A DNA stretch of 63,935 nt, filler included, from Reclinomonas americana ATCC 50394 (GCA_048213135.1; 9 parts of 3 records of this genome joined end to end with filler, not necessarily neighbours in it), one strand, 5' to 3'. Positions 13,805 through 58,006 are shown, counted from the whole stretch's first letter. Translations and numbers: made by a program. The notes: generated by a model from the sequence alone, not told the origin.

Positions 13805-13875
<71 letters not shown>

Positions 13876-16312: not shown

Positions 16313-16375
<63 letters not shown>

Positions 16376-19064: not shown

Positions 19065-20267
19065 TCACTCCGTCCAGCTCCAACCAGGCGCACGGTGTTC
19101 AATAACCGCTGCATCCTCCGACACAAAACACCGCAGCACGACATCGACCAGGATCCAGTCACGATCGCTATCGTCATCTTCTTCGGCAAGCAGCTCGTTG
19201 ACGGCCTGCACGGCTGATCGTGCGGCCGCAAGCTCTTGCCGCGCCAGCCCACGCGGCGTGGACCACACTCGGATCGTCTCGTCAGAACTGCCACTCAGAA
19301 TGTGCTGCCCGTCGGGTGTCACTGCCACGCACGACACCCATCCAGTGTGTCCCTCCAACCGCCGCACTTCCTCGCCACTTGCCACCGACCACACCCGTAC
19401 AGTTTGATCCCAACTGCCACTAACAATGAGCTGGTCATCGGGTGCTACAGCCACTGCACATACCCCACGCGTGTGGCCTTCCAGTCGGCGCACCTCCTTG
19501 CCACTTGCCACCGACCACACTCGGACTGTCTTGTCATCGCTGCCGCTCACGACGTGCTGGCCATCGGGTGCTACAGCCACTGCACATACCCCACGCGTGT
19601 GGCCTTCCAGTCGGCGCACCTCCTTGCCACTTGCCACCGTCCACACTCGGACTGTCTTGTCATCACTGCCGCTCACGACGTGCTGGCCATCGGGAGTAAC
19701 AGCGACAGACCGTATCTCGTCAGCGTGTCCCTCCAGCTGTCGCACCTCATCGCCACTTCCCAGCAACCACACTCGGACTGTGTAGTCTCCACACCCACTG
19801 ACAATGTGCTGACCATCTGGGGTGACGGCGACAGACGTCACCGCGTCGGTGTGTCCCTCCAACTGTCGCACTTCATCGCCTCTTGCCAGGGACCACACAC
19901 GTACGGTACTGTCTCCACACCCACACACCATTTGCTTGCCATCGGGGGTGACAGCGATAGAGAACACCATGTAAGTGTGTCCCTCCAGCTGTCGCACCTC
20001 ATCGCTACTTGCCAGTGACCACACACGAACTGTGTCGTCCGCACACCCACCGACAATGTGCTTGCCATCGGGAGTGACGGCGACGGATCGCACTGTTGCG
20101 AAACTCTGAATGATCTGCGTCGACCACTCGCGATGAGACGCATGCACAGCAACATTCAAAGACACACACACACACACACAACAACACAAAGAACAACACA
20201 AGCACACGAATGCACGCACAGACGACAACAACGCAAAGTGCGCACACATTCACACCTTTGTGTCCAT
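19065..20267 (-). CDS. Intact stand-alone 7-bladed WD40 protein, about 353 aa (exons 20267-20256 and 20114-19065)
   Basis: ATGGACACAAAG|GTGTGA, a 141-nt intron, GCAG|ATCATT, then seven ~42-aa repeats and a tail ending APGWSWTE-stop, with an open frame throughout. Confidence 0.92.
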
Positions 20268-24432: not shown

Positions 24433-24532
24433 NNNNNNNNNNNNNNNNNNNNNNNNNNNNNNNNNNNNNNNNNNNNTTAATTAATTAANNNNNNNNNNNN
24501 NNNNNNNNNNNNNNNNNNNNNNNNNNNNNNNN

Positions 24533-27442: not shown

Positions 27443-27768
27443 AATGTGCTGGCCATCAGGGGTGACGGCGACACAAAGCACCCATCCAGTGTGTCCCACC
27501 AGCCGTCGCACTTCTTCTCCACTTGCCAAAGACCACACACGAACGGTACTGTCCATACACCCACCGACAATGTGCTCGCCGTCGGGAGTGACGGTGACGG
27601 ACCGCACCGAAGAAGCGAGACTCTGAATGATCTGTGCCGACCATTCGCGATGAGACGCACAGGCACAAAAACAACCACCGCACATGCACGAGCACAAGCA
27701 CACGCTGCGAATGCATGTACAGACACCAACCACGCAAAGTGCGCACACATTCACACCTTTGTTGCCAT
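27443..27768 (-). CDS. WD40 family copy, 5' part (exon 1 27768-27757, exon 2 from 27631 into a gap); 3' flank is of the FFRC type
   Basis: MATK|IIQSLASSVRSVTVTPDGEHIVGGCMDSTVRVW... Bases 27080-27176 are the reverse complement of the 3' flank at 7185-7299. Confidence 0.85.
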
Positions 27769-28659
27769 TCTCCGTGTGGTGAGAGAGAGAGAGCGAGAGA
27801 GAGTGCGTGTGTGTGCGTGTGTGTGTGAAGTTAAGCACCAACTCTATTCATCCGACGGAACATCAACATCAACTCTCTCTCGCGCGTGTGTGTGTGCGCC
27901 TCGGTGCTGTCTGTGTCTCTGTGCCCTGTGTCTCTCTGCGTCCCCGTCGTGGTGCTCCATTCTCAACCAGCAATGTGAGTGAGATGTTGCGGCATTGAAT
28001 GTGCATGCATGCATGCTGAGCCTGTTCAACTCAACACGCCTTGAGCATCAACTCCCTCTGAGCCACGCACGTGAGTCGGGTGGAGGCCAACAACACACGA
28101 TTCAGAAAGAGAGCGAAGAAGCAGCGCAGTTCGTGAGTGGGGTGCGTCACACCATGGCCAGTTGTCTGGGCACGCACGGCGGGAAACGAGTATGCAGGGC
28201 AAGTGCACTCCCTCCCCGTGGCGTGTGTAACGAGAAGAGTGGCCATCTGAATCGATGCCTGACGCGCTCTCCATGTTCACGCGGTGCCAGTGTGAGAGGG
28301 GGAGGCGGGCAATGATGCCACTTCAAAAGCCAAAGGCTGGCATCCACGCCGTGTTCGAATGACAGGGCGACATGAAGGCACAAGCACAAGGCGTGTGTGT
28401 GGGTGGGAGAGCGAGGACTCGCCCAACGCCGAGTAGCACGCGTGTCTGTTCATTCCATGGTCTCACCTCAACCACCCACGCACATCCACACACACCTCGC
28501 ACTCGGGATTCTCTTCTTGCAATCCCACTGCACTGTGCTGTGTCTGCTTTCCGGCTGCCTGCACTTGGCAAGGCAGTGGAGAAGCACGTGTGAGGCGGTG
28601 TGGCGGTCAACACGAGAGAGTCGCGCAGTGACAGATCGGTCTTCGTACATTCATTGAGC
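27769..28659. repeat. Spacer A copy
   Basis: Colinear with 1333-2228. Confidence 0.9.
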
Positions 28660-28950
28660 TCACTCCGTCCAGCACCATCCAGGCGCACGGCGTTGAATCA
28701 CCTCTGCATCCTCCAGCACGAAGCACCGCAGCACGACATTGACCAGGATCCAGTCACGATCATCTTCGTCGACGAGCAGCTCGTTGACAGCCAGCACGGC
28801 TGAGCGTGCGGCCGCAACCTCTTGTCCCGCCAGCCCACGCGGCGTGAACCACACACGGATCGTTTTATCCGCACTCCAACTCGCAATGTGCTGGCCATCG
28901 GGAGTAACGACGACAGAGTATACCCATCCAGTGTGTTCCCTCCAACCGTC
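28660..28950 (-). pseudogene. WD40 family 3' fragment (last repeat and APGWCWTE tail); 5' part replaced by low-complexity repeat
   Basis: HTGWVYSVVVTPDGQHIASWSADKTIRVWFTPRGLAGQEVAAARSAVLAVNELL..DWILVNVVLRCF; an extra base lies in GGGAACAC. Confidence 0.75.
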
Positions 28951-29379
28951 CAACACTGCGCAACAGGAACAAAAGGAAAGAATGAAGAAACAATCAGAGA
29001 GAGTGGGTTGTGAAGCAAGAGGACAGACATCGGCGAACGGGATGCAATGAGGGGAATGAGAGAGGAGTAGCGTGCTGCAATTACGTGGGCGCAAAAGGAA
29101 GAGAAGAGAGGGTAGGCACAAATCGGAATGGGGAGGAAGAGGAGAGCAAGCGAGGAACGCGGCACAGTGACGAGCAAGCATCCCTCAATCGACATGAAGC
29201 AGAACAATGCGAGACGAGAAGAAAGAGAGAGTGGGCGCACGGAGGCATGAACAATGCAAGTGCATGACATGAAGGGAGGAGAAAAAGGGCGGATCTTGAG
29301 AAGCGGACGATGAAGACAGCAGGGAGGCATTGAAAGGGAAGCCATTGAAGAGCGCTCAGCTGACACAGGAGAGAACGAA

Positions 29380-30200
29380 ACGAGGTGAGGAGAAATAGAG
29401 TGGGAGGAGGCGTGAAGGACGCAAGTGAAAAAAGATCAAGGAAGGAGAGAGGGACCGAAAAGGGAAGTCGTTGAAGCACAGACAGGTGAAGGAGAAAGAG
29501 AGTGGAAGGAGGCGTGAAGAATGCAAGTGAAAAGAGATAACGAAAGGAGAAAGAGACCGAAAAGGGAAGTCGTTGAAGCAAAGAGAGGTGAGGAGAAGGA
29601 GAGTGAGAGTGGACAGAGTCGTGAAGAATGCAAGTGAGAAGAGACCAAGAAANNNNNNNNNNNNNNNNNNNNNNNNNNNNNNNNNNNNNNNNNNNNNNNN
29701 NNNNNNNNNNNNNNNNNNNNNNNNNNNNNNNNNNNNNNNNNNNNNNNNNNNNNNNNNNNNNNNNNNNNNNNNNNNNNNNNNNNNNNNNNNNNNNNNNNNN
29801 NNNNNNNNNNNNNNNNNNNNNNNNNNNNNNNNNNNNNNNNNNNNNNNNNNNNNNNNNNNNNNNNNNNNNNNNNNNNNNNNNNNNNNNNNNNNNNNNNNNN
29901 NNNNNNNNNNNNNNNNNNNNNNNNNNNNNNNNNNNNNNNNNNNNNNNNNNNNNNNNNNNNNNNNNNNNNNNGAGGTGAGGAGAGTGAGAGAGGATGGAGG
30001 CGCGAACAAGTGAAAAGAGATCAACGAAAAGCAACAAGGGCGGCTCACGGGAATTGAACACTGGAGAGGAAAGAGGCCAAGAAAGGAAGACACAAGAAAG
30101 AGCGAAACGAGACGAGACGAGGTGAGGAAATGGGGAGCGGGAGGAGTCGTGAAGGGTGCAAGTGAACGTGACCAATGCGAGTGAATGGTGGAGGTGAAAA
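29380..30200. repeat. Purine-rich degenerate tandem repeat (about 100-120 bp unit)
   Basis: GAGGTGAGGAGA..GCGTGAAG..GCAAGTGAAAA and GACCGAAAAGGGAAGTCGTTGAAGCA recur. Confidence 0.75.
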
Positions 30201-31199
30201 AGAACGAGAGACAAAAGTAACGTGAATCGCTCACCTGCTCAGTATGTGAGACACAAGAACACAGTCGGCGCAGCGTGTACTCGCTCCGCGTCATGGGTGC
30301 CGCACAAGGCGGGCAAGGAGAGATCTGAATGTGATGCTGGAGCGCGCCATTGCGAGGCACATGTACACATCTCGTCGCCACGGTGCTCCGTCTCGCACAA
30401 CACAAAGGACAGATGGTGCGATGACAGGCCTCACTCCCCTGCGACATGAGAGCGCATATGTGAGCAACGAAAAAAAGCAGAGCAGCCGGCATTCGTGTTG
30501 CATGCACCACAAGCACACACCGATCGACAGAAAATGCGTGTGGGCATTCGAGCAGTCAAGGGACACCGCGGCAAGTGACAGGATGCCGCCCAGCTGCACC
30601 TGCTGCAGCAGAGCATGTGGACCGGGCGAGTCGAAATGCATCCCACATCTGTCGCAAAGGTGGCATCATGCGTGTCAGTGCATGACCATGCTGGTCGCCC
30701 TCCCTTCAACCTCAAATCGCAAACGATCCTCTTTTCTCTCTCTCCACTCCTCTCACCGCCCCCGTCAACTCACCCCGCACGTGTGTCTCGTTGCGCGCCA
30801 CCAGCATCACCAGTTGCTGCTGTGGAGGAGTGCGTGACGGTCGATCAACGAAGAGCCACCAACAGGAAGAACAAGATGCGCCACATTGCGAATCCGGCGG
30901 TGGCCGACGACTGGCTCACACGAGCTCCCATCGATATCACGCCGGCTGACAAGCGACGTCGACGTTCGAATGGCACCGCTCTCACGCAATCATCGCCTGC
31001 AGGCGGAGAGCGCGATAAGGTGAGTGTGGGCGCAGAATTGGGCGAAGAAGGAGGGCGTAGAGAGTGAATCGGTGAATCTGAAGCGAGAGGGAGAGGTGGG
31101 TGGAGGAGACAGAAGAAAGCAACGGTGGCATGGCGGACAAGGGGGGAGAGGGGGGAGAGGGAAGATGCGAAGGAAGAGAAAGCAGAAAGCAGAAGAGAA

Positions 31200-31790
31200 G
31201 GGAGAGGCAGAGACAACAGAGCGATGATTCAACGAGGATGAAGATGAAAGGGAAAGAAAAGACGCGAAGGAAGAGAAAGGGAAAGAGAAGGAAGAGGCAG
31301 AGACAACAACAGAGCGATGATTCAACGAGGGGGGACGCGGAAGGGAAAGGAAAGAGAAGGAAGAGGCAGAGACAACAACAGAGCGATGATTCAACGAGGA
31401 TGAAGATGGAAGGGAAAAGGAAGACGCGAAGGAAGTGAGGCGAAAAAGAAGGAAGAGGCAGAGACAACAACAGAGCGATGATTCAACGAGGGGGGACGCG
31501 GAAGGGAGAGGGAAGACGCGAAGGAAGGGATAGGGAAAGAGAAGGAAGAGGCAGAGACAACAGAGCGATGATTCAACGAGGGTGAAGACAGAAGAGAAAG
31601 GGAAGATGCGAAGAAAGAGAAAGCAGAAAGCGGAAGGAGAATGAAGACAACAACAGAGCGATGATCCAACGAGGGAGAACACGGTAGGGAGAGGGAAGAC
31701 GCGAAGGAAGGGAAAGCGAAAGAGGGGGGCGGAGGGGGAAGAGAGAATGAGGAGGAAGAGATAACAGTGCGATGATTCAACGAGGGTGGA
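31200..31790. repeat. Purine-rich minisatellite with core ACAACAGAGCGATGATTCAACGAGG (7 copies, 70-115 bp spacing)
   Basis: Core seen near 31213, 31306, 31375, 31466, 31557, 31651 and 31763. Confidence 0.88.
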
Positions 31791-32619
31791 GAGGAGAGAG
31801 AGAGAGAGAGGCGATTGCATGAACGCACAAATGCACGTCCNNNNNNNNNNNNNNNNNNNNNNNNNNNNNNNNNNNNNNNNNNNNNNNNNNNNNNNNNNNN
31901 NNNNNNNNNNNNNNNNNNNNNNNNNNNNNNNNNNNNNNNNNNNNNNNNNNNNNNNNNNNNNNNNNNNNNNNNNNNNNNNNNNNNNNNNNNNNNNNNNNNN
32001 NNNNNNNNNNNNNNNNNNNNNNNNNNNNNNNNNNNNNNNNNNNNNNNNNNNNNNNNNNNNNNNNNNNNNNNNNNNNNNNNNNNNNNNNNNNNNNNNNNNN
32101 NNNNNNNNNNNNNNNNNNNNNNNNNNNNNNNNNNNNNNNNNNNNNNNNNNNNAGGAGGAGGAAGAGAGGAAGAGATGGATGGAGCGACGCTGTGCCAATC
32201 TCCTTGCACCGCATGAGCATCGACTGTGGCCGATGGGAGAGAGAGAGAGAGCAACGAAGGCGACGGAGTGGAAAGTTTGCCATCCCGCTCATTGCAGCAG
32301 AGGGGGGAAAGCGGGGAAGGGGGAAGGGGAGAGAGCTCAAGTAGAATGTTGAGAGGTTGAGAGTGGGAAGAGGAGGAGGATGGGGAGTGAGGAAAACAAT
32401 CCAGCAGGAACATGTACAAGCATGCAAACACACACACACACTCTATCCTCTTTCTCTCTCTCTCTCTCTCACACACACACATGCTGTTGCAATCGATGGC
32501 GGTTATTGTGAAGGAAGAAAACGACAAGCAGCGTGTCGCAATGCCGCGTGCGGTCTACATGCAATACGCTCCTGTTTGACGAGCCAGGCATGACTGGATC
32601 AATGGTGAGAAAGGAGCGC

Positions 32620-33505
32620 GAGTGAGGGGAAGAAGGAACAATGCAACAGGGACAACTCACAGAGACGTCCGAGCCTTGCAATGCATGCACCGGCGATGGT
32701 GGAGACAGGGAGAGAGAGATAGCTCTCCATTTGAGCAGGATCACGGATCGTGCTGCTGAACAGACACAATGAATGAATGAATGAGTGAGTGAGGAGAGCG
32801 ACGGAGGGGGAAGAATGAACAATGCAACAGGGACAACTCACAGAGACGTCCGAACCTTGCGATGTACCGGCAATGCATGCACCGGCGATGGTGAGACAGG
32901 GAGAGAGAGACAGCTCTCCATTTGAGCAGGATCACGGATCGTGCTGCTGAACAGACACAATGGATGAATGAGTGAGCGAGGAGAGCGAGAGAAGGGGGAA
33001 GAAGGAACAATGCAACAGGGACAACTCACAGAGACGTTCGAGCCTTGCGATGCATGCACCGGCAATGGTGGAGACAGGAAGCGAGACAGCTCTCCATTTG
33101 AGCGGGATCGCGGATCGTGCTACTGAACAGACACAATGAATGAATGAGTGAGTGAGGAGAGCGGGGGAGGGAGGGAGAAGGAACAATGCAACAGGGACAA
33201 CTCACATAGACGTCCGAGCCTTGCGATGCATGCACCGGCGATGGTGGAGACAGGAAGAGAGACAACTCTCCATTTGAGCGGGGGATCACGGATCGACCTG
33301 CTGAACAGACACAATGAATGATTGAGAAAGGAGAGCGAGAGAAGGGGGGAGAAGGAACAATGCAACAGGGACAACTTACAGAGACGTCCGAGCCTTGCGA
33401 TGCATGCACCGGCGATGGTGGAGAGAGGGAGAGAGACAGCTCTCCATTTGAGCAGGATCACGGATCGAGCTGCTGAACAGACACAATTAATGATTGAGTG
33501 AGCGA
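32620..33505. repeat. Tandem repeat, five units of about 180 bp
   Basis: GAACAATGCAACAGGGACAACT.ACA.AGACGT.CGA...CTCTCCATTTGAGC...TGAACAGACACAAT occurs five times. Confidence 0.93.
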
Positions 33506-35049
33506 GGCAGACGCGGTTGATTTCCCATCCGCACCCCAAGGCGCACATACGCACGTACCTCCAAAAGATGCCTATGTCGCCACATCCAGCAGGTCATCTT
33601 CTTTTCTCCTTCGCCTCCTCCCCCTCCTCCTCAAGGAGAAGACGATGAAATGGCACAACAGCAATAACTGAGGGCCGCTAGCCAAGCCGGAGGAGGCGAA
33701 TTGGGAACAATAATCGTCCAGCAGATGGAGGAGGTGGAGGTGTGAGTCGCGCTCCATGAGTGTCTCTTGCATCATCAATGAGAGCGTCTGTGCGAGCAGG
33801 AAACCATGCTGATGAGCGAGAGCACGCAGCGTGAGAAGAGAGAAAGAGAGAGAAACAAAACGATGGGCTGCTGCGGTGTGGAGGTTTCTCTTTTCTTCAT
33901 CTCTTTAACGGCCAGTCTTCCTCTCTCTCTCCCCACACCGACACCGCTTCTTGCGTCAAGCACACGAAGATTGATCTTCCTTCTGTGTTCTGCAAGCCAA
34001 CGGCTCAAAATGGCAACAACAGCAACCGCACACACGAAGACATTCACTCGTTGCGCATATGCATCGGAAGAATAGAAAACGGGACAAGCGGCGGACAGCA
34101 CGGCCGTGAGAACAAAGTGGGTGGAGAGAGAAGAGAGAAGAGAAAGAGAGTAGGGATGATGAATGAATGAGGGAAGGAAGAGTGAATAAAGAAAGGATGG
34201 AGAAGGAATTGAGCGCGGAAGGGATAAAGAAGGAAAGGAGCTCAAGCGGGAAAGAGGCGAAGAAGGAAAGGATGCGTAATGGGGAGAGGAATGAGGAAGG
34301 GATGAAGAAGGACAGGAGTGGGGAAGAAGAAGAGGCGAAGAAGGAAGGGATGCAGAGGAAAAAGAGCGGTGAAGAAAAAAGGAGAGGGAGTGGCAGGAGA
34401 AGAACGAGAGAAAGAGGCGAAGAAGNNNNNNNNNNNNNNNNNNNNNNNNNNNNNNNNNNNNNNNNNNNNNNNNNNNNNNNNNNNNNNNNNNNNNNNNNNN
34501 NNNNNNNNNNNNNNNNNNNNNNNNNNNNNNNNNNNNNNNNNNNNNNNNNNNNNNNNNNNNNNNNNNNNNNNNNNNNNNNNNNNNNNNNNNNNNNNNNNNN
34601 NNNNNNNNNNNNNNNNNNNNNNNNNNNNNNNNNNNNNNNNNNNNNNNNNNNNNNNNNNNNNNNNNNNNNNNNNNNNNNNNNNNNNNNNNNNNNNNNNNNN
34701 NNNNNNNNNNNNNNNNNNNNNNNNNNNNNNNNNNNNNNNNNNNNNNNNNNNNNNNNNNNNNNNNNNNNNNNNNNNNNNNNNNNNNNNNNNNNNNNNNNNN
34801 NNNNNNNNNNNNNNNGAAGGTAGGAAAAGATGCATTGCGTGTGGGCGGAAGAACTGTACCATTACGAGGGGCAGTGGCGAATCCAAGCACGAAGACACGC
34901 AACACGCACGGCGAGAGAGGCGACGAAATACATAGAGAAAGAATGAGACAGCAAGGGAGGTGGGGAGTGGAGAAAGGGAGAGAGGAAGAGAGGAAGGGAG
35001 AGGAAGGGAGGCGAAGAGGAGAGGAATAGGGAGAAAGGGAGGAAGAAGT

Positions 35050-35474
35050 GTGCAATCACGCGGAGCAATGGCGAGTTGATGCACGGAGATACACACAAAC
35101 GTGCTCTCAACAAGAGAGGAGGAGGAGAGGAAGAGAGTGAGAGAGGAAGGAAGGAAGGGAGAGGCAAGGAGGAAGGGAGAGCGTGATCCGTGTCGGAAGA
35201 ATTGTGTAATCAAGCGGAGCAATGGCGAGTTGATGCACGGAGATACACACAGCAGTGCTCTCAGCAAGAGAGGAGGACGAGGAGAGGAAGGGAGGCGAAG
35301 AGGATGCGTGTGGACGGAAGAATTGCTCAATCACGCGGAGCAGTGGCGAGTCAATGCACGAAGACGCGATGGCGAGAGAGGAGGAGGAGAGGAAGGTACG
35401 GGAAAGGGAGAGAGCGTGATTCGTGTCGGAAGAATTGTGTAATCAAGCGGAGCAGTGGCGAGTTGATGCACGGA
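35050..35474. repeat. Degenerate tandem repeat (about 120-160 bp)
   Basis: AATCA.GCGGAGCA.TGGCGAGT..ATGCACG occurs four times. Confidence 0.8.
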
Positions 35475-36001
35475 NNNNNNNNNNNNNNNNNNNNNNNNNN
35501 NNNNNNNNNNNNNNNNNNNNNNNNNNNNNNNNNNNNNNNNNNNNNNNNNNNNNNNNNNNNNNNNNNNNNNNNNNNNNNNNNNNNNNNNNNNNNNNNNNNN
35601 NNNNNNNNNNNNNNNNNNNNNNNNNNNNNNNNNNNNNNNNNNNNNNNNNNNNNNNNNNNNNNNNNNNNNNNNNNNNNNNNNNNNNNNNNNNNNNNNNNNN
35701 NNNNNNNNNNNNNNNNNNNNNNNNNNNNNNNNNNNNNNNNNNNNNNNNNNNNNNNNNNNNNNNNNNNNNNNNNNNNNNNNNNNNNNNNNNNNNNNNNNNN
35801 NNNNNNNNNNNNNNNNNNNNNNNNNNNNNNNNNNNNNNNNNNNNNNNNNNNNNNNNNNNNNNNNNNNNNNNNNNNNNNNNNNNNNNNNNNNNNNNNNNNN
35901 NNNNNNNNNNNNNNNNNNNNNNNNNNNNNNNNNNNNNNNNNNNNNNNNNNNNNNNNNNNNNNNNNNNNNNNNNNNNNNNNNNNNNNNNNNNNNNNNNNNN
36001 N

Positions 36002-36100
<99 letters not shown>

Positions 36101-37514
36101 GAATGATTGTGACAGCCAATGCACGCAAAGATACGCACACACACGACTCATTCTGTCTGTCTCTCTCTCCCGCTCTCTTTCGTCTCGCCCATCTGCACGA
36201 AAACAACACGCACACAACACACGCGCAAACACTCACCGTGGAATGTGCAGCGCAGCAACAACCGTGTGGTCGATGCGTCCCTCCTCCGTCGAATCCTGCC
36301 TGTCTCTCCCTCTCCATCTCGTTCACCAACAAGAGAACACGCTCTCTCTCTCTCCTCCCCTCCTCTCCTCCATTCATTCTTGCTCACACACAAACACAGA
36401 GGCACAGCGATCACCACCACCGTCATTCTCACGAGTGGGAAAGGAGAAATCGGTTGAACTGTCGGACAGGTGAAATGAGGCAAAAACCGATTGCATGCTG
36501 GCCGCCCTCCTGGTGGGTGTGGGTGCGTGGCGGAGGGAGACAGCCGGTTGCTGTTAATGTATGAATAGGGGGCCTGAGTTGGGGGGAGGAAAAGAACTCT
36601 GCAAGAAATGGAATTGGAGAAAGGGGAAGAAAGGAAGCACGAACGGGCGGTGAGCGGTGGAAATCGAAGCGATCCGGCATGGCACCGAATGAAATGCAGC
36701 CGAGAAATCCGGCAGGGGGATGGGTGGAAGGTGTGAGTGAGATGAATTGCACGATGGAGTCGATGGAGAGAGTGGAGAAGATGCACGGCATGCGAAACAT
36801 TCACTCACAGACGCATGCAGCAAGCAAACGGTGCGGATTCAGCTGAAATGATGGCCATAGATGGAATAACAGGCGGGAATGAGGTCAGATTTGGAAACAA
36901 AGGATGAGATCACATGGGCGGAAAGGGGGAGAAGGATTCTGCCAGAGGGAATGCGGAATGAAGATGCCGGTGAGGAGCTGCAATGGATTGACTGATGCAA
37001 TTCCGATGGAAGATTGAGAAAATCATGGAGGGCGGAGGAGAGGTGGAGCAGGTCATTTGGTGCAAGCATCATGTACAGGGAGAAGAAAAGGAAGGGTACT
37101 ACGGTGGGGAATCAAGAATTGAGATACTGGTGGGGAGATACGAGGAGAGACATTTGATTGGTCACTTCCGAATTCACATGAATCGCAGAGAGAGTGTGAA
37201 AGGAGAGGTCAAATCGATCAGTGATTGATGGAGGAGTGGGGATGGAGAGGTGCGAGAGTGTATTCTTGGAGTGGAATGAGGAAAATAAGAAAGGCACGGG
37301 TGAGAATTGGGGAAAGGAGATGGAAGGGCGAGAATTGGGGAAGGAGATGGAAGGGCGAGAATTGGGAAAGGAGATGGGGAGAGAATAGAATGTGGAAACA
37401 TACTCTTGAAGTGANNNNNNNNNNNNNNNNNNNNNNNNNNNNNNNNNNNNNNNNNNNNTTAATTAATTAANNNNNNNNNNNNNNNNNNNNNNNNNNNNNN
37501 NNNNNNNNNNNNNN

Positions 37515-40500
37515 TTACTGGCGGCAGTGTGACAACCGCTGGTTCTCTGCAAGGCGGTAGCGTCAGCACCCTCGGTGTGATCAATGCTGGCGGTGTGATT
37601 ACTGGCGGTAGCGTGACAACCGCTGGCACTGTGCAGGGCCTGTCTCTCAGCGCATCTGGTGTCATTAGCGGCGGCAGTGTGACGACAGCCGGCTCTCTGC
37701 AGGGCGGTAGCATCAGCACCCTCGGCGTGATCAATGCGGGCGGTTTGATTACTGGCGGCAGTGTGACAACCGCTGGCACTGTGCAGGGCCTGTCTCTCAG
37801 CGCATCAGGAGTCATCAGCGGTGGCAGTGTGACCACTGTGGGCTCTCTGCAAGGCGGCAGCGTAAGCACTCTCGGTGTTATCAATGCCGGTGGTGTGATT
37901 ACTGGCGGCAGTGTGACGACCGCCGGTTCTCTGCAAGGAGGCAGCATCAGCACCCTCGGCGTGATCAGTGCCGGTGGCTTGATTACTGGCGGTAGCGTGA
38001 CAACCGCCGGCTCTCTGCAAGGCGGCAGCGTCAGCACTCTCGGCGTGATCAATGCTGGCGGTCTGATTACTGGCGGTAGTGTGACGACCGCTGGATCGCT
38101 GCAAGGCGGTAGCATCAGCACCCTCGGTGTGATCAATGCTGGCGGTGTGATTACTGGCGGTAGCGTGACGACAGCTGGTTCGCTGCAAGGAGGCAGCGTC
38201 AGCACTCTTGGTGTGATCAATGCCGGTGGTGTGATTACTGGCGGCAGTGTGACGACCGCTGGTTCTCTGCAAGGCGGNNNNNNNNNNNNNNNNNNNNNNN
38301 NNNNNNNNNNNNNNNNNNNNNNNNNNNNNNNNNNNNNNNNNNNNNNNNNNNNNNNNNNNNNNNNNNNNNNNNNNNNNNNNNNNNNNNNNNNNNNNNNNNN
38401 NNNNNNNNNNNNNNNNNNNNNNNNNNNNNNNNNNNNNNNNNNNNNNNNNNNNNNNNNNNNNNNNNNNNNNNNNNNNNNNNNNNNNNNNNNNNNNNNNNNN
38501 NNNNNNNNNNNNNNNNNNNNNNNNNNNNNNNNNNNNNNNNNNNNNNNNNNNNNNNNNNNNNAACCGCTGGTTCTCTGCAAGGCGGCAGCATCAGCACCCT
38601 CGGTGTCATCAATGCCGGCGGTCTGATTACTGGCGGCAGTGTGACAACCGCTGGTTCTCTGCAAGGCGGCAGTATCAGCACCGTCGGCGTGATCAATGCC
38701 GGCGGTCTGATTTCTGGCGGCAGTGTGACGACTGCTGGCTCTCTGCAAGGCGGCAGCATCAGCACTCTGGGTGTGATCAATGCCGGTGGTTTGATTACTG
38801 GCGGTAGCGTGACGACCGCTGGTTCGCTGCAAGGCGGAAGCGTCAGCACTCTTGGTGTGATCAATGCCGGTGGTGTGATTACCGGCGGCAGCGTGACGAC
38901 AGCTGGCACTGTGCAGGGCCTGTCTCTTAGTGCATCCGGCGTCATCAGCGGCGGAAGTGTGACCACTGTGGGCTCACTGCAAGGCGGCAGCGTCAGCACT
39001 CTCGGCGTGATCAATGCTGGCGGTCTGATTACTGGCGGTAGTGTTACGACCGCCGGTTCTCTGCAAGGCGGCAGTGTCAGCACTCTCGGCGTGATCAACG
39101 CTGGCGGTCTGATTACTGGCGGCAGCGTGACGACAGCTGGCACTGTGCAAGGCCTGTCTCTGAGTGCATCCGGCGTCATCAGCGGTGGCAGTGTGACCAC
39201 CGTGGGCTCACTGCAAGGTGGTAGCGTCAGCACTCTCGGCGTGATTAACGCTGGCGGTCTGATCACCGGTGGTAGTGTGACGACAGCTGGTTCACTGCAA
39301 GGCGGCAGCATCAGCACCCTCGGTGTGATCAATGCTGGCGGTCTGATTACCGGCGGCAGCGTGACGACAGCTGGCACTGTGCAGGGCCTGTCTCTTAGTG
39401 CATCCGGCGTCATCAGCGGCGGAAGTGTGACCACTGTGGGCTCACTGCAAGGCGGCAGCGTCAGCACTCTCGGCGTGATCAATGCTGGCGGTCTGATTAC
39501 TGGCGGTAGTGTGACGACCGCTGGATCGCTGCAAGGCGGCAGCATCAGCACCCTCGGCGTCATCAATGCCGGTGGCGTGATTACTGGCGGCAGTGTTACG
39601 ACCGCCGGTTCTCTGCAAGGCGGCAGTGTCAGCACTCTCGGCGTGATCAACGCTGGCGGTCTGATTACTGGCGGCAGTGTGACGACAGCTGGCACTGTGC
39701 AGGGCCTGTCTCTTAGTGCATCAGGAGTCATCAGCGGTGGCAGTGTGACCACTGTGGGCTCTCTGCAGGGCGGCAGTGTCAGCACTCTCGGNNNNNNNNN
39801 NNNNNNNNNNNNNNNNNNNNNNNNNNNNNNNNNNNNNNNNNNNNNNNNNNNNNNNNNNNNNNNNNNNNNNNNNNNNNNNNNNNNNNNNNNNNNGGCAGTG
39901 TGACGACAGCCGGCTCTCTGCAAGGCGGCAGCATCAGCACTCTGGGTGTGATCAATGCCGGTGGCTTGATTACTGGCGGCAGTGTGACGACAGCTGGCAC
40001 TGTGCAGGGCCTGTCTCTTAGTGCATCAGGAGTCATCAGCGGTGGTAGTGTGACGACCGCTGGTTCTCTCCAAGGCGGCAGTGTCAGCACTCTTGGTGTG
40101 ATCAATGCCGGCGGTCTGATTACCGGCGGCAGCGTGACGACAGCTGGTTCACTGCAGGGCGGCAGTATCAGTACTCTCGGTGTGATCAATGCCGGCGGTC
40201 TGATCACTGGCGGCAGTGTGACGACCGCTGGCACTGTGCAGGGCCTGTCTCTCAGCGCATCTGGTGTCATCAGCGGTGGCAGTGTGACGACAGCTGGTTC
40301 TCTGCAAGGTGGCAGCATCAGCACTCTCGGCGTCATCAACGCTGGTGGCTTGATCACTGGCGGCAGTGTGACGACAGCCGGCTCTCTGCAAGGAGGCAGC
40401 ATCAGCACTCTGGGTGTGATCAATGCCGGTGGCTTGATTACTGGTGGCAGTGTGACGACCGCTGGCTCTCTGCAAGGCGGGAGCGTCAGCACTCTCGGCG

Positions 40501-41794
40501 TGATCAACGCTGGCGGTCTGATTACTGGTGGCAGTGTGACGACATCTGGTTCCGTGTCAACGTCGACACTCAGCGTCGCATCCACGACAACAATCAACGG
40601 TCGGCTGCGCCTGAAGCAGGACAATACTAACTATACGGTTTCCACACCCGATGGATATGGCTTCCTGCAGTACACGTCGACGCAGAAAGTTTCGTGTTCG
40701 TTTCCCGGTCGAAGTTTTTCTTGCTTTGTACTCATCATTGATGCTGCCGCCAGTTGTACTTGCTCGGTGACGATGGAACGTACTACAGCATGACAACCAC
40801 GGTCAGTTCATGTTTTTGTCGATTCTGCTCTGCTCGCTGTGCTCAACTTTTTCGTTCTCCGATGCAGACGGGCTCAACGCCCTCGGACGCCCGCCTGAAG
40901 CAGAACGTTCAGCCAATCGCAGGCGCCAATAGCCTCGTCCGTCGACTCCGTGGCCGCACGTTTGAGTGGAATACGGTGGGTGTTGCAATGTGGCTGTGTG
41001 TGCGTGTGTGTCTGTGGACATTTGTGAGATTCATGACGTCGATTCGTTGTATTGCAGGCCGCCAAAGCATTCGGGTTTGAGCCAGGCGAGAAGTCGATCG
41101 GCTTCATCGCCCAGGAGCTCGAAATGTTGGTTCCTGAACTAATCGAGACCGAGCGGCACCCCAGTGGCTTGGTGAGTCTTGCTTCCCCAGTCTGGCAGTC
41201 GAAAGAGCCGAGATCGCTAACGTATCTACATCACAGTCTGTTAAGCGAGTCGCTTACGGCCCGGTGGTGGCCATTCTTGTTGAAGCGCTGAAAGAGCAAC
41301 AGTTGACGCTGGAGCAGCAGCAATTGACATTGGAGCAGCAGCAGTTGACGGTGGAGCAGCAGCAGAATGCGCTCACCGTCTACGATGCCGAGTTTGCGAA
41401 TCAGCGGCTGAAGATGGCTGATCAGGAACGGATTAATCGGGAACAGGAAGTCGAGCTGGTGAACCAGCGGCGTGTGGCTCACGAGCAGGAGCTGAAGGCG
41501 GCTGAACAAGAGCGGATTAATCGGGAGCAGGAGCTGAAGCTCGCGGAACAACAACGCATCACTCGGGAACAGGAGTTGAAGATGGCTGAACAGGAACGCA
41601 TCACTCGGGAGCAGGAGCTGAAGGTGGCTGAACAGGAGCTGAAGCTCGCGGAACAGGAACGCGAGTTGACCGAACTTCGTCGTCTTGCCGAGGTGCACTC
41701 GCAGCAAATCGCCGAACTGAGCCGTTTGATGGCCACGCTGGCGGCAGCACGTTCCAGCAACGAACTCTCACAGCAAGACAACAAGCCAATGTAA
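37515..41794 (+). CDS. Tail-fibre-like protein: long G/S/T repeat stalk, peptidase S74 intramolecular chaperone and coiled coil; 5' incomplete
   Basis: 28-aa and 22-aa repeat units over about 3 kb. Four GT-AG introns (40689-40753, 40802-40867, 40976-41057, 41172-41236) give PSDARLKQNVQPI...LRGRTFEWN...IGFIAQELEMLVPELI...VAYGPVVAILVEALKEQQ, then heptad and 14-aa EQERI.REQELK.A repeats. Confidence 0.88.
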
Positions 41795-41850
41795 CAACAT
41801 GCGGTGTTTTATTGACAATCTCCCCCTCAATGATTTGGCGCCTCTATTCT

Positions 41851-44800
41851 TCAGGGAGAGTGACGGTCTCGGTTGATGAGCACATGCGGACTCTTGTATG
41901 GGTCGGGGCGTGCACAAGGAATCACATGCCAGATTTGCTCGGCATACTGCAATAGATCTCGATTAGTAGTGACACTTGCAGCTGCACATGTAAGTTCTGC
42001 ACGCCGCACCTCGCGCACACTGCGATCGGAGGAAAAGTAGCCGCTGCGAGCAGTCGAAGTCAGACTCTTCCGAATCCACTCTCGCGGATTCTTGTACAGC
42101 TCGTCCACATTGCCCTGAATCCGGAGATAGTCGGCAAAGTCATATGCCGCAATGTACTGTCATTGTCGCACGATGAGCTCAGCAAGTGAGCGAGCAACCA
42201 TATGCGCACAGGCGGGGGAGCATAACGCACCTTGTTGAAGATGGTGCCGACAAAACGATCAAATCCGAACTGCCGATAATCGCCAAACGTGCCACTCCGA
42301 ATGAGATCCAGCACGCGAGTTAGCCGCTGGTCCTCGCGGAAGCTGCCTGAACGCACTGACTCCCAGGCGGATTGCACCTGATCACAGCGGCAGCCAAAGA
42401 TGAACATGTTGTCCTCGCCGATTTGCTCCGCAATCTCCACATTAGCGCCATCCATCGTGCCGATAATCAGGCAGCCGTTCATGGCAAACTTCATGTTGCT
42501 GCAGCCATGTGATGAGTGGCCACCATTCTTCTTGCACTATTCTGCATGGCGGCTCTGACGCAAACAAACCTGGTACCGGAAGCCTCATAACCGGCAGTTG
42601 AAATCTGCTGGCACACATCCGCTGCCGGGATGATGATCTCGGCCAGTGACACCTTGTAATCCGGCAGGAACACCAGTTTCAAGTACGCATTCGTTTCAAG
42701 GTCGTGATTGATCACCGCGGCCACGTTGTTGATCAACTTGATTGTGATCTTGGCGACCTCGTATCCGGGGGCGGCTTTTCCGGCAAAAATCACGGTTCTC
42801 TTGACCGTTCGCGCACGCTCCTCGGCCGACATTCGCTTCAGTTCGTCCCACCGATGAATCACACTGCATCGTAAGCCACGGGGCATTAACACAACCGCCA
42901 TGGAAAGTATGCATGCACAGTCCATGTCACACACCTCAGCAAGTTGAGCGACTGCCGCTTGTACTCTGCCAACCGAGAGCGCACCATTGAGCACTGCTGT
43001 AAGAATCGACGGCGAGCGTTCCACCACCACCACCACCAAGAACTTACCATGAATGCGCTTCACGTGCACATCAAACAGCGACGACCGATCGACGACGATG
43101 CCAGTCTCGTCCTCGATGTGCAGTGCTGCATGAGTTGGGATTGTGAGTGAGTGGCGGATTCAGTCACGCAGCGCGCGCTCTCGTGTTGCGACAGACCCAG
43201 AATCTCCTTGTTGTACCGCCGTACTTCTTGCCACTCGCGCTCCAGTTCCGGATCACCAATCACATCGAGCAGGGCTGTCAGTTTTGAGAGCTTGGTCATC
43301 CAGTGATGGTCATCGCACCACTTGCACACCAGTTCGGTGTACTTGGGATTCGCGAGAGCCATCCACCTGTGGGGCCGGGGGGAAATTGTCGTGGTGGTAG
43401 TGAGTGCGAGAAGAAGAGAGAGAGAAAACATGTGGAAGTTCTCACCGCCGCGGTGTCACTCCGTTCGTGACATTGACAAAGCGATCCGGAAACATGCTGG
43501 CAAAGTCGGCAAAGAGCGAATCACGCAGAATCTCCGAGTGCATTCGCGAGACACCATTGACTTTGAAGGAGCCGACGGCTGCCAAGTGAGACATGCGAAC
43601 CCACTTGGGCTCACCCTCCTCGATGAGACTCATGCGAGCCAGCTTGTCGCGATTGCCAAAGTGTGCCTCCACGTCGATCAGGAAGCGGCGATTGATTTCG
43701 TAGATGATTTGCATGTGACTGAGCACAAGAACACAAGAGGCGACTGTGAGGTGGTGGCAACTCGGGGTGGCTCACAATGATTACACGGACGCACCGAGGC
43801 AGCAAGTTCTCCATCAGCGGCACGCGCCACTTCTCCAGCGCCTCAGGCAGCACGGTGTGGTTCGTGTACGCAAACGTGTTGCGCGTGATCTCCCAGGCCT
43901 CCTCCCATCCGAGGAACTCTGTGTGTACGTGTGCGTGTGGCAAGACATGAGCTGCTGTCAAGCTGCGTGGCGCGCACGGGCGCACGTACCTTCGTCGAGA
44001 AGAATGCGCATCAATTCGGGAATGGAAATGGTGGGATGGGTGTCGTTCAGTTGAATCACCACCTGCGGAATAAATGAGTACCCTCATGGTGACAAGAAGG
44101 AAAACTGGGCTATGTGAACCTTGTTTGGCAGCTCGCTCAACGGCAGCGACAGCTTTTTGAATCGTCGCAGAATGTCCTGGATGGTGGCACTCGAGAAGAA
44201 GTATTGCTGCTTCAGGCGAAGCTCGTTTCCTGGGGCGGGAGAAACAGTGAGAGGGGGAAGCGAGAACAATAGAAGTGCGCCTCACGTACCTCGGTACTGG
44301 TGGTCATTCGGGTACAGCACCGACGTGATGGTCTCCGACTTGTTCTTCTCTCCAATGGCACCTACGTAGTCGAATCTACACGAACCGCATCGTGATGAGC
44401 GACGGAAGCAGCGAGAGGCGCGTGGAAGGGGGTGGACTGACGCAACGAGTTGAACAGATCGTAGTCAAACTCGCGAGACGGCTTGGCCTTCCACAGGCGC
44501 AGATTGTTCACATTGAAGGTGTCGTAGCCGGGGATCGGGTTGTCGTAGGCACAGGCAAACACGCTTTCGCCACCTTGCCAGTGCACCTATTCTTCCCCCG
44601 CATGAGAAACACCGTGTCACAAGAGGGAACGAAGCAGCTGCAGTGCCGTGCAACAAACCCTCATGCACCCGAGCTCGTCCTCATACCACGATGTCTCGCC
44701 GTAGAAACGAACTGGATAGTACACGTCGAGTCGCTCAATCTCCCACGGGTTTCCGCGAGACAGCCTGCCACAATAACTAAGACTGACGGCGCAGCGCGAG

Positions 44801-46500
44801 AAGGACGATGATCCGTGTCTCACCAGTAATCAGGACGCTCCTTCTGGAACCCGTCGACGATGCTCTGCGCAAACATGCCGTACGTGTAGCGGATGCCGTA
44901 TCCCCACGCCGGCAAGTTGGCCGTGGTCATCGAGTCCTGCACAAGCAGAGGGGGTGAAATGGTCAGCCCAGATGCCCTCCGCATAACGGTGCACGACAGC
45001 AGCAGCAGCAGCAGACCAGATAGCAGGCCGCCAGACGCCCGAGGCCGCCGTTTCCGAGTGCTGCATCCTGCTCTTCGTCGTACAGCTCCTCCAGCGCGTA
45101 CCCAAAGTCAGTCATCGCTGTGAAACAAGGAGGTGAGTACCGAGGAGTGCACAAACGCAGCGGGATACACACACACACACCTTGTCCGTACTCGGAGGTG
45201 AGATCGAGATTGAAGAGTGCGTTTTGCAGGCTGCGGCCCATCAGGAACTCCAGACTCATGTAGTACACACGTTTGCCTGCATGCTCGGTGATGTACTGTG
45301 TGGTGGGGATGGAAAGAGAGGTGAGAGAGGGGAGAGGGAGGGAGGGAGGGAGAAAAGGGGAGGGAGGGGGAGGGGGGAGGGAGAGAAGGGGAGGGAGGGG
45401 GAGAAGCGAAGAGGCGGGAGACGGAGAGGAGATAGCAGAAGTGAGAGAGCGAGAGACAGGCAGGGGGAGACGGAGAGCAAATGGGTGTGAGGCGAGGTGT
45501 GCGAGAGAGTGTGAGAGAGAAGGAGAGAAGCCACAAGCCTGCACTTGCGGCCATGCGGTGGAGAAAAACAACACACAGGAGTACTACAACTGTCGCGCCC
45601 AGACAACGGCCACCACCACACACACACAACGACGAAGGCACACCTGCTGCGTGTCATTCCAGCTCTCGATCAACCGATCGCGCACACTCAACGCTGTGGC
45701 CATGTACGTCGCCCACGACTCAATGTTGAAGCGAGTGCGTGCCAGCGTGTATTCGACATGGTTGACCACGTACTGCTCAATGTCACGCGGGTCCTTGGAC
45801 AGGTACGTCGACATGAGCTCCCACATGCGACTGGTGCCGATCGGATTGCGCAGGTCCGCAGGTCTGTGCAATTGCAATGACAGGCGATCAGTATAGTATC
45901 GTCGACCAGCAACATGATGGCACGTAGCGCAAGACGCCGTACCGATACGCGATCTCGTTCTTGGCTGATGGTGACGCGCGATGTGATCAATGTGAGACAA
46001 CACGATTCGGACGTGTCCGCATCGACATGACGACTTACCGTGACTGCGTCGGCGTTTGAGATGAGGCGTCTTGCGCGGAATCACCGCCATGGAGGTGGGC
46101 GAACCTCCTCCACTGTAGGTGACCTCCACACGCGCAGTCGGGCTGCTTCCATCGTAGCTGTCGACCACGGGCGGAAATCCACTGTCGCAGTGATGAGAAA
46201 AAGCACAGTGAAAGACGAAGGCGGAGTAAGGAAGCACTCTGACCAGGGCGACTGCGGCGTGCTGCTGAACTGTGTTGTTTGCGAGTGAGCGAGAGAGAGA
46301 GGAAGAACGCACATTGTGAGTGACGCAACACGAGATTCCTCAGTGTCGGGCATTCCGCCACTGAGCGAGTTGCGTCGGCGTCGCTCACGTGGCGACATGC
46401 TGCCTCCTGCGCCTTGAGTGCCTGTGACTGATGCAGAGGCTGGTGTACCACTCATCATCTGCTGTTGTTGTTGTTGTGCGACAAAGTCCAACGTGTTCAT
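41851..46500 (-). CDS. glgP: Glycogen phosphorylase (GT35), multi-exon
   Basis: [129 protein letters not shown]. The start codon is tentative. Confidence 0.96.
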
Positions 46501-47073
46501 CGCTCCGCAACAACAACACAAAGGAAAACGATTGGCAAGGAGCGAATCTTGAAGCGAATCTTTTCACGCACTCTCGTTCCCTCTCTCTCTCTCTTTCTCT
46601 GTGTGTTGCGTGCATGCCGCGTGCTGCTGCGACCGGTGGTGATTGGATACGACGAGGAAAAAAATCATCGTTCACTCATGAAGGTGGCGCGATTGGTAAG
46701 CAGTTGTGCGATTATTGGTTGTAAAGACGACATCATGGTGTGGAACCTTCTTGCAGTGCGATACGAACGCGTGCCGAAACGCATAAGGCGAGAGGATGAG
46801 GTGTGTTGATACGCAAGTTCTAGTGCGCGGGCAGGCGCCATGTTCATCACAGAGTTTCCCAATTCGGACGGACCACATGGCCATGGATGCTGGCTGTGAA
46901 GAGAAGAGGGCAAGCGGTGTGCGGGCAGCACACAGCTGGGCCGAGGCGTAAGAGAGGCGTGGCACACTGTGACAGTGAGACTGCAGCAGTGCGTGAATCC
47001 GAACCGGCGCGAATCCGAACGCGCGGTGATTGAAAGAAAAAGTACGAATGCGGCGAGTACATAAGGCGGTTTC

Positions 47074-48105
47074 ATGACTCGCAGAGAGTGGCGTTGAAGG
47101 CCACAGTGGCCTCGGAGTGTGGGTGATGGCCAACTCCTGTGCCGCTGTGAGTGAGGGGTGCGAGAGTGGCAAGCGAAGTGAAAAAACAAACCTTGCAACT
47201 CGATGACTTTGAAGTTGGGAGACTTGTTGCAGAGGGCGCGCATGTGCGGCCCGAAGGATGGATCGACAAACGGGTCGTCTCTGGTGACATGCAAGAGCGT
47301 GAGGGGCGACTGTGCTTCACCAAAGAACGACGCAGGCAGGCAGGCACTCACCGTCCGTAAATTACAGTGACCTGCAAAACGGGTGGAGCGTGAGTGGAGC
47401 GGCAAGGAGGGTGAGAGAGGAAGGGGATAAAGAGCGCACCGGTATGGTCAACGAGGGGAGATCTTCCTCCAACGGGTGCGTCCTGCGTTGGCCGTTGAAT
47501 ACAGTGCGTGTGCGTGAAGATGCAGCAGACGATTACATACCACGGACTGTTTCGCGGCGACGGCAGCAACCGCGTCCAGGCGACTTCACCACTGGCCGGC
47601 ATAGCGGAAATATGGTACAGATACTCGGCCTGCCAACGCACATGTGAGCCGGTGGGCATAATAAAGCACCGGGAAAAATTGACGGCGAACCAGTCGATTG
47701 TCAGACCACGGGAAGCGGCCGCGATCCTGCCATCGAGCCGTCGACACCACCAAGTAGCCTGCGCACAGGTCGGAGACAGAGGGTTGATGAGCACACAGAG
47801 ACAAACGTGCGGCAGAAAGACCATGAAGCAATAATCTCCGGTTGTGAGCACTCTCACCAAAGTGAGGTCCGAGCGACCGAACGACATCCTGCGGTGTGAT
47901 GCCGAGTACGCCAAATCCACCGGCGTCGCGGTCCAGATCGCCCGACTGCATGTACTCGTGAAGGAACTGATCGAGTCGAGGGCTCTTGCGCAGGCCTGCG
48001 AGACGCAGTTAGTCTCTAGAATGTCTCGCGGCCGACGACCACTCACCAACAGGCGCATTCAGTATCAGCCGCCGAACTCGTTGCGGGTGCTCCAGGGCAT
48101 ACGAC
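47074..48105 (-). CDS. Alpha/beta hydrolase (ABHD4/ABHD5-like), C-terminal exons
   Basis: Spliced exons read AASYALEHPQRVRRLILNAPVG, ITPQDVVRSLGPHFG and terminal GVGHHPHSEA. The N-terminus is lost at the contig end. Confidence 0.65.
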
Positions 48106-48214
48106 GCGGCCTGCACGACGAGTGAGCGCACGCGAGAGAAGGAGAAGGAAAAGGAGGAGGAGGAGGAGGAGGAGGAGGAGGAGGAGGAGGAGAAGGAGAA
48201 GGAGAAGAAGAAGA

Positions 48215-48255
<41 letters not shown>

Positions 48256-48375
48256 NNNNNNNNNNNNNNNNNNNNNNNNNNNNNNNNNNNNNNNNNNNNT
48301 TAATTAATTAANNNNNNNNNNNNNNNNNNNNNNNNNNNNNNNNNNNNNNNNNNNNGCGCGCGGGGGAGCGAGCGC

Positions 48376-52474: not shown

Positions 52475-52834
52475 AATCTCTGCTGTTCCTTATCTGCGAT
52501 CCTGATCATCGTTGTCTGCCTTCCTCTCACATATCCCTTCCTGTTCATCCCCTTCTTCATCTCCTTCTCTCTCTCTCTCTCTCAATCTCTGCAGTTCCTT
52601 ATCTGCGATCCTGATCATCGTTGTCTGTCTTCCTCTCACGTATCCCTTGCTGCTGGCTCCCCTCCCCCTCCTCTCTCTCTCNNNNNNNNNNNNNNNNNNN
52701 NNNNNNNNNNNNNNNNNNNNNNNNNTTAATTAATTAANNNNNNNNNNNNNNNNNNNNNNNNNNNNNNNNNNNNNNNNNNNNGAGAGAGAGAGAGAGAGAG
52801 AGAGGACTTTGACGCCAGAGAACAACAAAGAGTG

Positions 52835-55500: not shown

Positions 55501-55755
55501 GACGGCGACTGATGGGAGGGAGAGAGGAGAAGGGTGAGAGAGAGAGAGAGAGAGGAGGAGAGAGAGAGGAGAACGAGAGGAGGGAGCGCGGAGGGAACAG
55601 TGGGGAGAGAGAGGAGTGGAGAGAAGAGNNNNNNNNNNNNNNNNNNNNNNNNNNNNNNNNNNNNNNNNNNNNTTAATTAATTAANNNNNNNNNNNNNNNN
55701 NNNNNNNNNNNNNNNNNNNNNNNNNNNNACGGTAACGTACTACTACTACTACTCT

Positions 55756-57787: not shown

Positions 57788-58006
57788 CTCTCTCTCTCTC
57801 TCTCTCTTCTTCTTCTTCTCTCTCTACTCTCCTCCTCTCTCTCTCCTCCTCTCTCTACGCGCGCGCGTCGTCGTACGACCGACGACGACTACGNNNNNNN
57901 NNNNNNNNNNNNNNNNNNNNNNNNNNNNNNNNNNNNNTTAATTAATTAANNNNNNNNNNNNNNNNNNNNNNNNNNNNNNNNNNNNNNNNNNNNGAGAGAG
58001 AGAGAG

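Follow-up and report, generated by a model that had tools for sequence, protein, structure and literature searches.

An intron-bearing gene of Reclinomonas americana predicted to encode an S74-capped repeat fibre

A gene of five exons with an S74 domain behind a repeat shaft

The window analysed here is a stretch of 63,935 nucleotides from Reclinomonas americana ATCC 50394 (GCA_048213135.1), in which nine parts of three records of this genome are joined end to end with filler, and it carries at 37517-41794, on the plus strand, a gene of which 1201 codons have been sequenced. This gene, hereafter the fibre gene, encodes a long shaft of repeats, a Peptidase S74 (ICA) domain and a predicted helical tail. 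One open frame runs through three sequenced blocks and gives 926 codons ahead of the first intron, where an earlier reading made from the sequence alone (the sequence-only reading) had claimed more than 800 repeat codons. The same reading had proposed four phase-0 introns with GT-AG ends, which we find at lengths of 65, 66, 82 and 65 nt, and a eukaryotic gene structure in which the S74 domain stands behind a long beta-rich repeat shaft, which is the arrangement given by the exon/intron map. All sequenced exon frames are open, and all four introns have canonical splice sites.

Exon 1 holds the repeats and ends, at 40530-40688, in a final degenerate unit and a non-repeat neck. Intron 1 (40689-40753, 65 nt) has to be removed for the frame to continue, the frame of exon 2 having a stop 4 codons upstream of that exon. 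Exon 2 (40754-40801) is only 16 codons long and supplies the strand just ahead of the predicted cleavage site. The least certain intron is intron 2 (40802-40867, 66 nt); because its length is a multiple of three and it is free of in-frame stops, what speaks for its removal is its GT..AG ends and the spacing seen in homologues, and not the frame. Exon 3 (40868-40975) encodes the first part of the S74 domain with the motif SDARLK, and after intron 3 (40976-41057, 82 nt, GT..AG) exon 4 (41058-41171) encodes the middle of the domain with GFIAQE. Intron 4 (41172-41236, 65 nt, GTGAGT..CAG) is followed by exon 5 (41237-41794), which opens with the last strand and helix of the domain (41237-41302, VAY..LVEALKEQQ) and closes with the stop codon at 41792-41794. 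The five exons lie in frames 0, 2, 2, 0 and 2, and owing to these frame shifts the domain can be read only without introns 1, 3 and 4. GC content is 0.47-0.52 in the introns and 0.50-0.64 in the exons (0.50 in the 48 nt of exon 2, 0.57-0.64 in the others).

The spliced domain was assembled in silico and aligned to 131 fetched proteins, 113 of which matched. The exon 3/4 and exon 4/5 junctions are both crossed collinearly in 112 of the 113 homologue alignments and the exon 1/2 junction in 21. Skipping exon 2 would formally be frame-neutral; its use is supported by the exon 2/3 junction, which 61 of the 113 alignments cover. After splicing, the loop between a conserved W and GFIAQE has 16 residues, equal to that of one fetched homologue (P0012).

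Pfam Peptidase_S74 (PF13884) matches exon 3 at 28.2 bits (cut-off 22, E 2.3e-6) over profile positions 1-31, so that the profile comparison suggested by the sequence-only reading came out in its favour, and a collinear match of 17 bits to positions 36-56 follows in exon 4. Against a hidden Markov model built from the fetched homologues, the spliced domain scores 103 bits over positions 2-95 of 95. The domain retains all 12 near-invariant columns of the family. Among them are the Ser, Asp and Lys columns of SDxxxK, which it has in common with 20, 20 and 19 of 20 aligned homologues, respectively. The dyad codons lie in exon 3 at 40883-40885 (Ser) and 40898-40900 (Lys), within SDARLK, and this motif, GFIAQE and LVEALKEQQ are all found. 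With profile, dyad and core residues all matching, the domain is, as judged from its sequence, a member of the Peptidase S74/ICA family, and the complete domain with a Ser..Lys dyad that had been read earlier stands. It is worth mentioning that two database proteins give two separate matches to the S74 domain, P0013 (108-213 and 406-523) and P0048 (657-787 and 829-973). They seem to carry two S74 domains each, unexpected for a C-terminal self-cleaving cap.

The repeat shaft and the helical tail

The shaft begins with repeat block 1 at 37517-38275, which comprises 253 codons of 28- and 22-residue units. An assembly gap at 38278-38561 separates it from block 2 (38563-39789, 409 codons), and a second gap, at 39792-39893, separates block 2 from block 3 (39897-40529), whose open frame continues through the neck (39897-40688, 264 codons). 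In all, 33 unit starts can be counted in the array; 30 units are complete, 22 having 28 residues and 8 having 22 residues. The periods found by Tandem Repeats Finder are 84, 150, 234 and 318 nt. Glycine makes up 27% of the shaft, followed by S (16%), T (14%), V (11%), L (10%) and I (8%). Upstream of the S74 domain, Pfam gave only sub-threshold matches, to Bflower_2 (the sole match in block 2) and FapA, with two of the three blocks scanned and the third consisting of the same units.

Differences among the units are concentrated at silent positions. Among the 22 units of 28 residues they number 313, 93 and 2334 at codon positions 1, 2 and 3, and 2293 synonymous codon differences face 351 non-synonymous ones; among the eight units of 22 residues all 140 differences are synonymous. 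This excess shows that the array is coding and under purifying selection, and it argues against a dead relic. In theory, the gene could be the decaying, unexpressed or non-functional remnant of a transferred gene, as its 5' end was not found and a satellite-like region adjoins it. However, besides the strong synonymous excess, every sequenced exon frame is open, the conserved S74 positions are intact at 12 of 12, and splice sites are canonical in four of four introns, and we therefore regard decay as decidedly improbable.

In an AlphaFold2 monomer model the shaft consists of beta strands throughout, roughly three to each 28-residue unit, but at a low pLDDT of 50.9, and a single-chain solenoid would be as compatible with it as a fibre of three chains. 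No relative of the shaft was found in 50,697 phage records, PHROGs, IMG/VR viral contigs or metagenome contigs. When shaft and neck were compared with longer proteins, 11 matches of 33-39% identity appeared, all to metagenomic G/T/S/V-repeat proteins, some with phage-family domains; owing to the low-complexity composition these are leads only. The same holds for the protein atlas, in which the first matches reached at most 0.91 with low recognition values and pointed to beta-helix-like, viral and Chlorophyta clusters. Within the window itself, the fibre repeat weakly matches 60026-60280 (32% over 85 aa, E 6e-4 without composition correction). This segment lies in a run of consecutive plus-strand open reading frames (ORFs) at 59789-62926 with Pfam matches to Gly_rich_2, DUF7382, Big_9 and Sortilin/BNR, which may represent a further surface protein gene of bacterial or phage type on this scaffold.

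Behind the S74 domain, residues 8-181 of exon 5 (41258-41779, plus strand) are predicted to form one continuous helix, rich in E, Q, L, A and R and with repeats of 7 and 14 residues in both DNA and protein. AlphaFold2 models exon 5 as a monomer with a mean pLDDT of 91.3 and a single helix of 174 residues, about 26 nm long. The helix is 35% charged and amphipathic, with a hydrophobic stripe of 7/14-residue period, and on this model it may stand alone as a stable helix or form a trimeric coiled coil of non-canonical type.

Relatives, host context and origin of the gene

The relatives of the S74 domain are microbial. Its 91-residue core is 37-45% identical to the best fetched database proteins, and the domain is 49% identical to that of a metagenome locus (L010) over 86 tree columns. 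Those relatives that carry a name are annotated as "tail fiber domain-containing" and come from uncultured bacteria, in some cases from megabase contigs; they likewise run from ...LVEALKEQQ into a helical tail. For 10 near matches, their clusters supplied hardly any organism names. In 91 phage records, fibre genes match exon 3 alone with 45-53% identity; in a protein search, exon 3 extended by its flanking codons to 43 aa drew 17 candidates and one match, P0012, at E 3.1. Exon 5 found seven IMG/VR viral loci and 11 metagenome loci, the matches being mostly confined to the last S74 helix and including no orthologue. When the exons were compared one at a time with solved structures, nothing came up for exon 3 at E<=10, 6f45 alone for exon 4 (E 1.5), and chance helical matches alone for exon 5. 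A profile search (alignment A2) of 1.84 billion representatives returned 339,398 proteins at E<=0.001; this profile included N-terminal repeat columns, and the best 150 of the 339,398 were giant repeat proteins, with none closer among the matches listed than the proteins already fetched.

For the domain phylogeny that the sequence-only reading had called for, 29 matches were dropped as short or duplicate, and a quick maximum-likelihood tree of 128 domains and 93 columns was built from 234 extracted domains, taking all loci, the 70 database proteins nearest to the window and every fourth of the remainder. The set was without MYRF, polinton-like-virus or giant-virus sequences, and the MYRF question was addressed by architecture and by profile scores against structures in the PDB only. 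A profile of the subgroup matches the MYRF ICA structure 7dc3 at 43.9 bits, and the self-cleaving domain is shared, as would be expected if the product were a membrane-bound transcription factor of the MYRF type, set free by its ICA domain. However, the same profile scores higher, at 66.5 bits, on the phage S16 long tail fibre 6f45, the domain is preceded by 926 fibre-repeat codons instead of an Ndt80-type DNA-binding domain, and no hydrophobic segment lies behind it: the 254-residue C-terminal fragment contains no transmembrane segment, its highest Kyte-Doolittle 19-residue mean being 1.38. A MYRF-type factor is thus an exceedingly unlikely identity for the product. The subgroup profile also matches Bdellovibrio fibre structures (8ond and others). 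Membership in the MYRF family was rejected, there being neither an Ndt80/PhoG-type domain in the sequenced part, from which the N-terminus is missing, nor a C-terminal membrane segment, in agreement with the sequence-only reading.

The fibre gene sits in a host context. One contig free of N (39894-48255) carries both the S74 domain and a convergent, multi-exon glycogen phosphorylase gene (41851-45583, minus strand), whose Pfam profile is spread over at least five ORFs of the opposite strand. The phosphorylase stop codon (41851-41853) and that of the fibre gene are 56 nt apart, and given this convergent arrangement the two 3' untranslated regions must be very short unless they overlap. One phosphorylase intron of 71 nt (GTTTGT..TGCAG) interrupts the conserved sequence EASGT/SNMKF between its two halves; a second, of about 63 nt and read by eye from the sequence, lies between ...SDRSVRE and YAEQIW. 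The introns of the fibre gene (65-82 nt) belong to the same size class. Codon usage is host-like as well: the GC content of third codon positions is 0.691 in the non-repeat part of the fibre gene and 0.682 in 1530 Pfam-supported host codons, and relative synonymous codon usage correlates with that of host genes at r = 0.68-0.71, compared with 0.75 between halves of the host set.

These observations bear directly on whether bacterial or phage sequence was joined to a eukaryotic contig, through contamination or chimeric assembly. Such an error would fit with the nearest S74 relatives being bacterial or metagenomic and with the many gaps and linker joins on the scaffold. There are 32 N runs in the window, among them eight pairs of 44+44 N with 12 bases between them (7300-7399, 13876-13975, 24433-24532, 37415-37514, 48256-48355, 52682-52781, 55629-55728 and 57894-57993), the intervening bases being TTAATTAATTAA in the one pair read. 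These eight pairs look like artificial contig joins, and adjacency across them is therefore scaffolding only. However, no N separates the domain from the phosphorylase, which speaks against the chimera with this neighbour considered in the sequence-only reading, and the S74 domain becomes readable only once frame-shifting GT..AG segments are excised, whereas a prokaryotic gene would be continuous. The sequence-only reading had held the introns to argue against contamination; to these are now added the gap-free linkage to an intron-bearing host gene and the host-like codon usage, and the three together make contamination very unlikely.

A viral origin within the genome is a different matter. 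The sequence-only reading had named MYRF-type transcription factors as the main eukaryotic carriers of the S74 domain; this is incomplete, MYRF not being the only carrier associated with eukaryotes. S74-capped fibre proteins occur in giant viruses, and the domain is mentioned in giant-virus papers. PMC12220804 also reports S74-capped fibre proteins to be ubiquitous in polinton-like viruses integrated in protist genomes. The viral route is thus a real alternative: the gene could have been brought in as a fibre gene by an inserted polinton-like virus, virophage or giant virus and still belong to that element, or have left it only recently, and have no host function. This alternative remains because the 5' flank is missing, the gene being preceded by a gap after about 9 kb of repeats. 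However, its four introns are of host size, its codon usage resembles that of host genes, the stop codon of an intron-bearing host gene lies 56 nt downstream, and IMG/VR contigs matched only the last S74 helix (seven loci, 20-34 residues) and nothing of the shaft. In addition, no capsid, packaging ATPase, integrase or polymerase family was found by Pfam in the 64-kb window among 198 of its 220 ORFs of at least 110 aa and 6 of the other 22, a search that divergent viral proteins can escape. We therefore consider a still-viral element unlikely.

The 5' end of the fibre gene is lost in the scaffold join at 37415-37514, which reads 44 N, TTAATTAATTAA and 44 N; sequence resumes at 37516, just past this linker. 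Directly upstream, at 28000-37414, lie the roughly 9 kb of purine-rich tandem repeats, with periods of 69-183 nt, a (GA)n tract at 36006-36100 and strong skew in both GC and AT; Pfam matches nothing in them. Besides phosphorylase, the Pfam families found among the ORFs of the window include WD40, P-type ATPase, M36 peptidase and Stig1-like. WD40-repeat ORFs occur on both strands at 2736-7158, 19068-20249 and 27443-29184, an M36 fungalysin gene with a PA domain lies on the minus strand at 13444-16389, and Stig1-like cysteine-rich ORFs lie on the plus strand at 22624-23913.

A proposed self-cleaving fibre and its comparison with known S74 systems

On balance, we think it probable that the fibre gene is a real nuclear gene with a horizontally acquired ancestor, eukaryotised since, and that it encodes an S74-capped, self-cleaving trimeric fibre, most likely an extracellular or surface adhesive filament. 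The ancestor would have come from a bacterium, a phage or a protist virus by horizontal transfer and would later have gained host-sized spliceosomal introns and host codon usage. The protein, of at least 1201 residues, would consist of an N-terminal part lost in the scaffold join, a shaft in which at least 33 units, 28 or 22 residues long, form beta strands, then a short neck and the S74/ICA domain with its helix of about 26 nm. How it might assemble we infer by homology with phage endosialidase, T5 fibres, Bdellovibrio MAT (mosaic adhesive trimer) fibres and MYRF. Three chains would meet at the C-terminal S74 domain, possibly with the help of the helical tail, and their association would act as a template on which the beta-rich shaft folds to a stable trimeric fibre. 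The Ser-Lys dyad, correctly placed only in the folded trimer, would then cut just before the Ser of SDARLK and release a fragment of 254 residues comprising chaperone and helix, leaving a mature fibre of more than 940 residues that ends in ...TGSTP. Given that every conserved residue is in place, the same course of trimerisation and cleavage is the most likely one here, and the mature product, to judge by its bacterial and viral analogues, would probably be secreted and serve as an adhesive filament outside the cell or on its surface. Nothing in the present analysis supports the extrusome part that the sequence-only reading had named as another possibility.

Several points weigh against this interpretation. 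All four splice junctions are predicted from sequence, and indels fall within about 5 residues of the junctions in 73 of 112 alignments at exon 3/4, in 109 of 112 at exon 4/5 and in 54 of 61 at exon 2/3; with junctions coinciding with variable loops, homology fixes the exons and not the exact splice sites. The N-terminus, and with it any signal peptide, is lost in the 37415-37514 join, the repeat array contains two gaps, and the upstream scaffold join is merely a linker. No significant Pfam or PHROG family covers the shaft, and its monomer model is poor. No canonical a/d heptad pattern runs through the helical tail, so that of the "long coiled coil" in the sequence-only reading the long helix, confidently modelled as a single one in the monomer, holds, and the canonical coiled coil does not. 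The searches made found no orthologue or eukaryotic relative, and in the domain tree the S74 domain sits on a long branch (0.94) within no supported clade. The phylogeny thus gives no supported partner, and the donor cannot be named.

Under the preferred interpretation, a eukaryotic cell seems to have adopted a fibre design of microbial origin. A more far-reaching version of it, which we put forward tentatively and would not call the expected outcome, is that this was a second independent eukaryotic take-over of the S74 cap, one that, unlike MYRF, retained the trimeric-fibre job as the cell's own surface or secreted adhesive filament, for example for attachment or prey handling, a eukaryotic counterpart of the Bdellovibrio MAT fibres, with the long released helix serving a role of its own. 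An S74 domain in a protist genome is not new in itself, given the S74 fibres already described from polinton-like viruses integrated in protists (PMC12220804). However, an intron-bearing nuclear gene, a shaft of unclassified 28/22-residue units without GxVGIGT and a very long helical tail set the present case apart, and the literature searched yielded no description of a eukaryotic S74 fibre gene that is cellular, has introns and is not of MYRF type, subscription journals and supplementary files lying outside the search. If the interpretation is true and the gene expressed, eukaryotic cells can adopt the fibre itself, with its whole architecture kept. The gene would then be a tractable case in which to follow the gain of introns and host codon usage by transferred genes, the function of the cap in a eukaryotic secretory pathway and the role of a filament in a protist. 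It would also call for caution in annotation, as an S74 fibre gene met in a protist genome need not be a viral insertion or a contaminant.

Among viral folding devices put to new use by eukaryotes, the S74/ICA cap is a textbook case, and to our knowledge MYRF is the only studied cellular eukaryotic use, one in which a transcription factor replaces the fibre. According to PMC3742443 and PMC10769870, in endosialidases, T5 pb1, MYRF and Bd3182 the S74 domain both drives and checks trimerisation and then cuts at its own Ser, the cut being prevented by a Ser-to-Ala change. Self-cleavage at the Ser of SDxxxK and trimer quality control are described there as shown experimentally for MYRF (PMC3742443), and the same self-cleavage and trimer control for the cellular Bdellovibrio fibre Bd3182 (PMC10769870).

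The bacterial tail-fiber-domain proteins, among them the S74 subgroup of the MAT fibres of Bdellovibrio (PMC10769870), come closest in sequence, holding the best matches, and are made by a cell and not as part of a virion. With the fibre gene they share a C-terminal S74 domain with SDxxxK, a long beta-rich shaft before it and a helical tail after it. The signal peptide and conserved beta-rich N-terminal domain of about 130 aa that mark such bacterial fibres would fall in the part of the present gene lost at 37415-37514. In contrast, the fibre gene is eukaryotic and has four introns; its tail continues for about 163 residues after KEQQ, compared with about 20-60 in three homologues (P0012, P0084 and L010); and GxVGIGT, which occurs at least once in 7 of the 10 nearest homologues, is not found in its 1201 residues. 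A strict expression for the MAT capping loop gave no match here and none in the bacterial homologues either, and is hence uninformative. Phage fibres and tailspikes (K1F endosialidase, T5 pb1, S16 gp37, cyanophage fibres) have the same domain, the same dyad and the same position at the end of the fibre. However, each of six fetched phage genes stops coding about 65-85 codons past the exon-3-like match, whereas 254 residues follow the Ser here, and the present gene is cellular and intron-bearing, with a shaft that matches no phage record or PHROG.

The fibres of polinton-like and giant viruses, compared here by description only, are likewise eukaryote-associated, very large, modular or repetitive, and capped by a single C-terminal S74 domain (PMC12220804). 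As described there, they lie within viral elements that carry capsid and other hallmark genes, and their shafts are built of collagen, laminin_G_3, adenovirus-fibre or phage tail repeat domains. In contrast, the fibre gene has introns, a different repeat and no viral neighbour among the ORFs scanned. MYRF and MrfA, finally, are likewise encoded by eukaryotic nuclear genes and have the same Ser-Lys dyad and trimerisation-dependent self-cleavage. They differ from the fibre gene product in their Ndt80-type DNA-binding domain and transmembrane segment, so that the N-terminal product released by cleavage, a transcription factor in MYRF, would here be the fibre.

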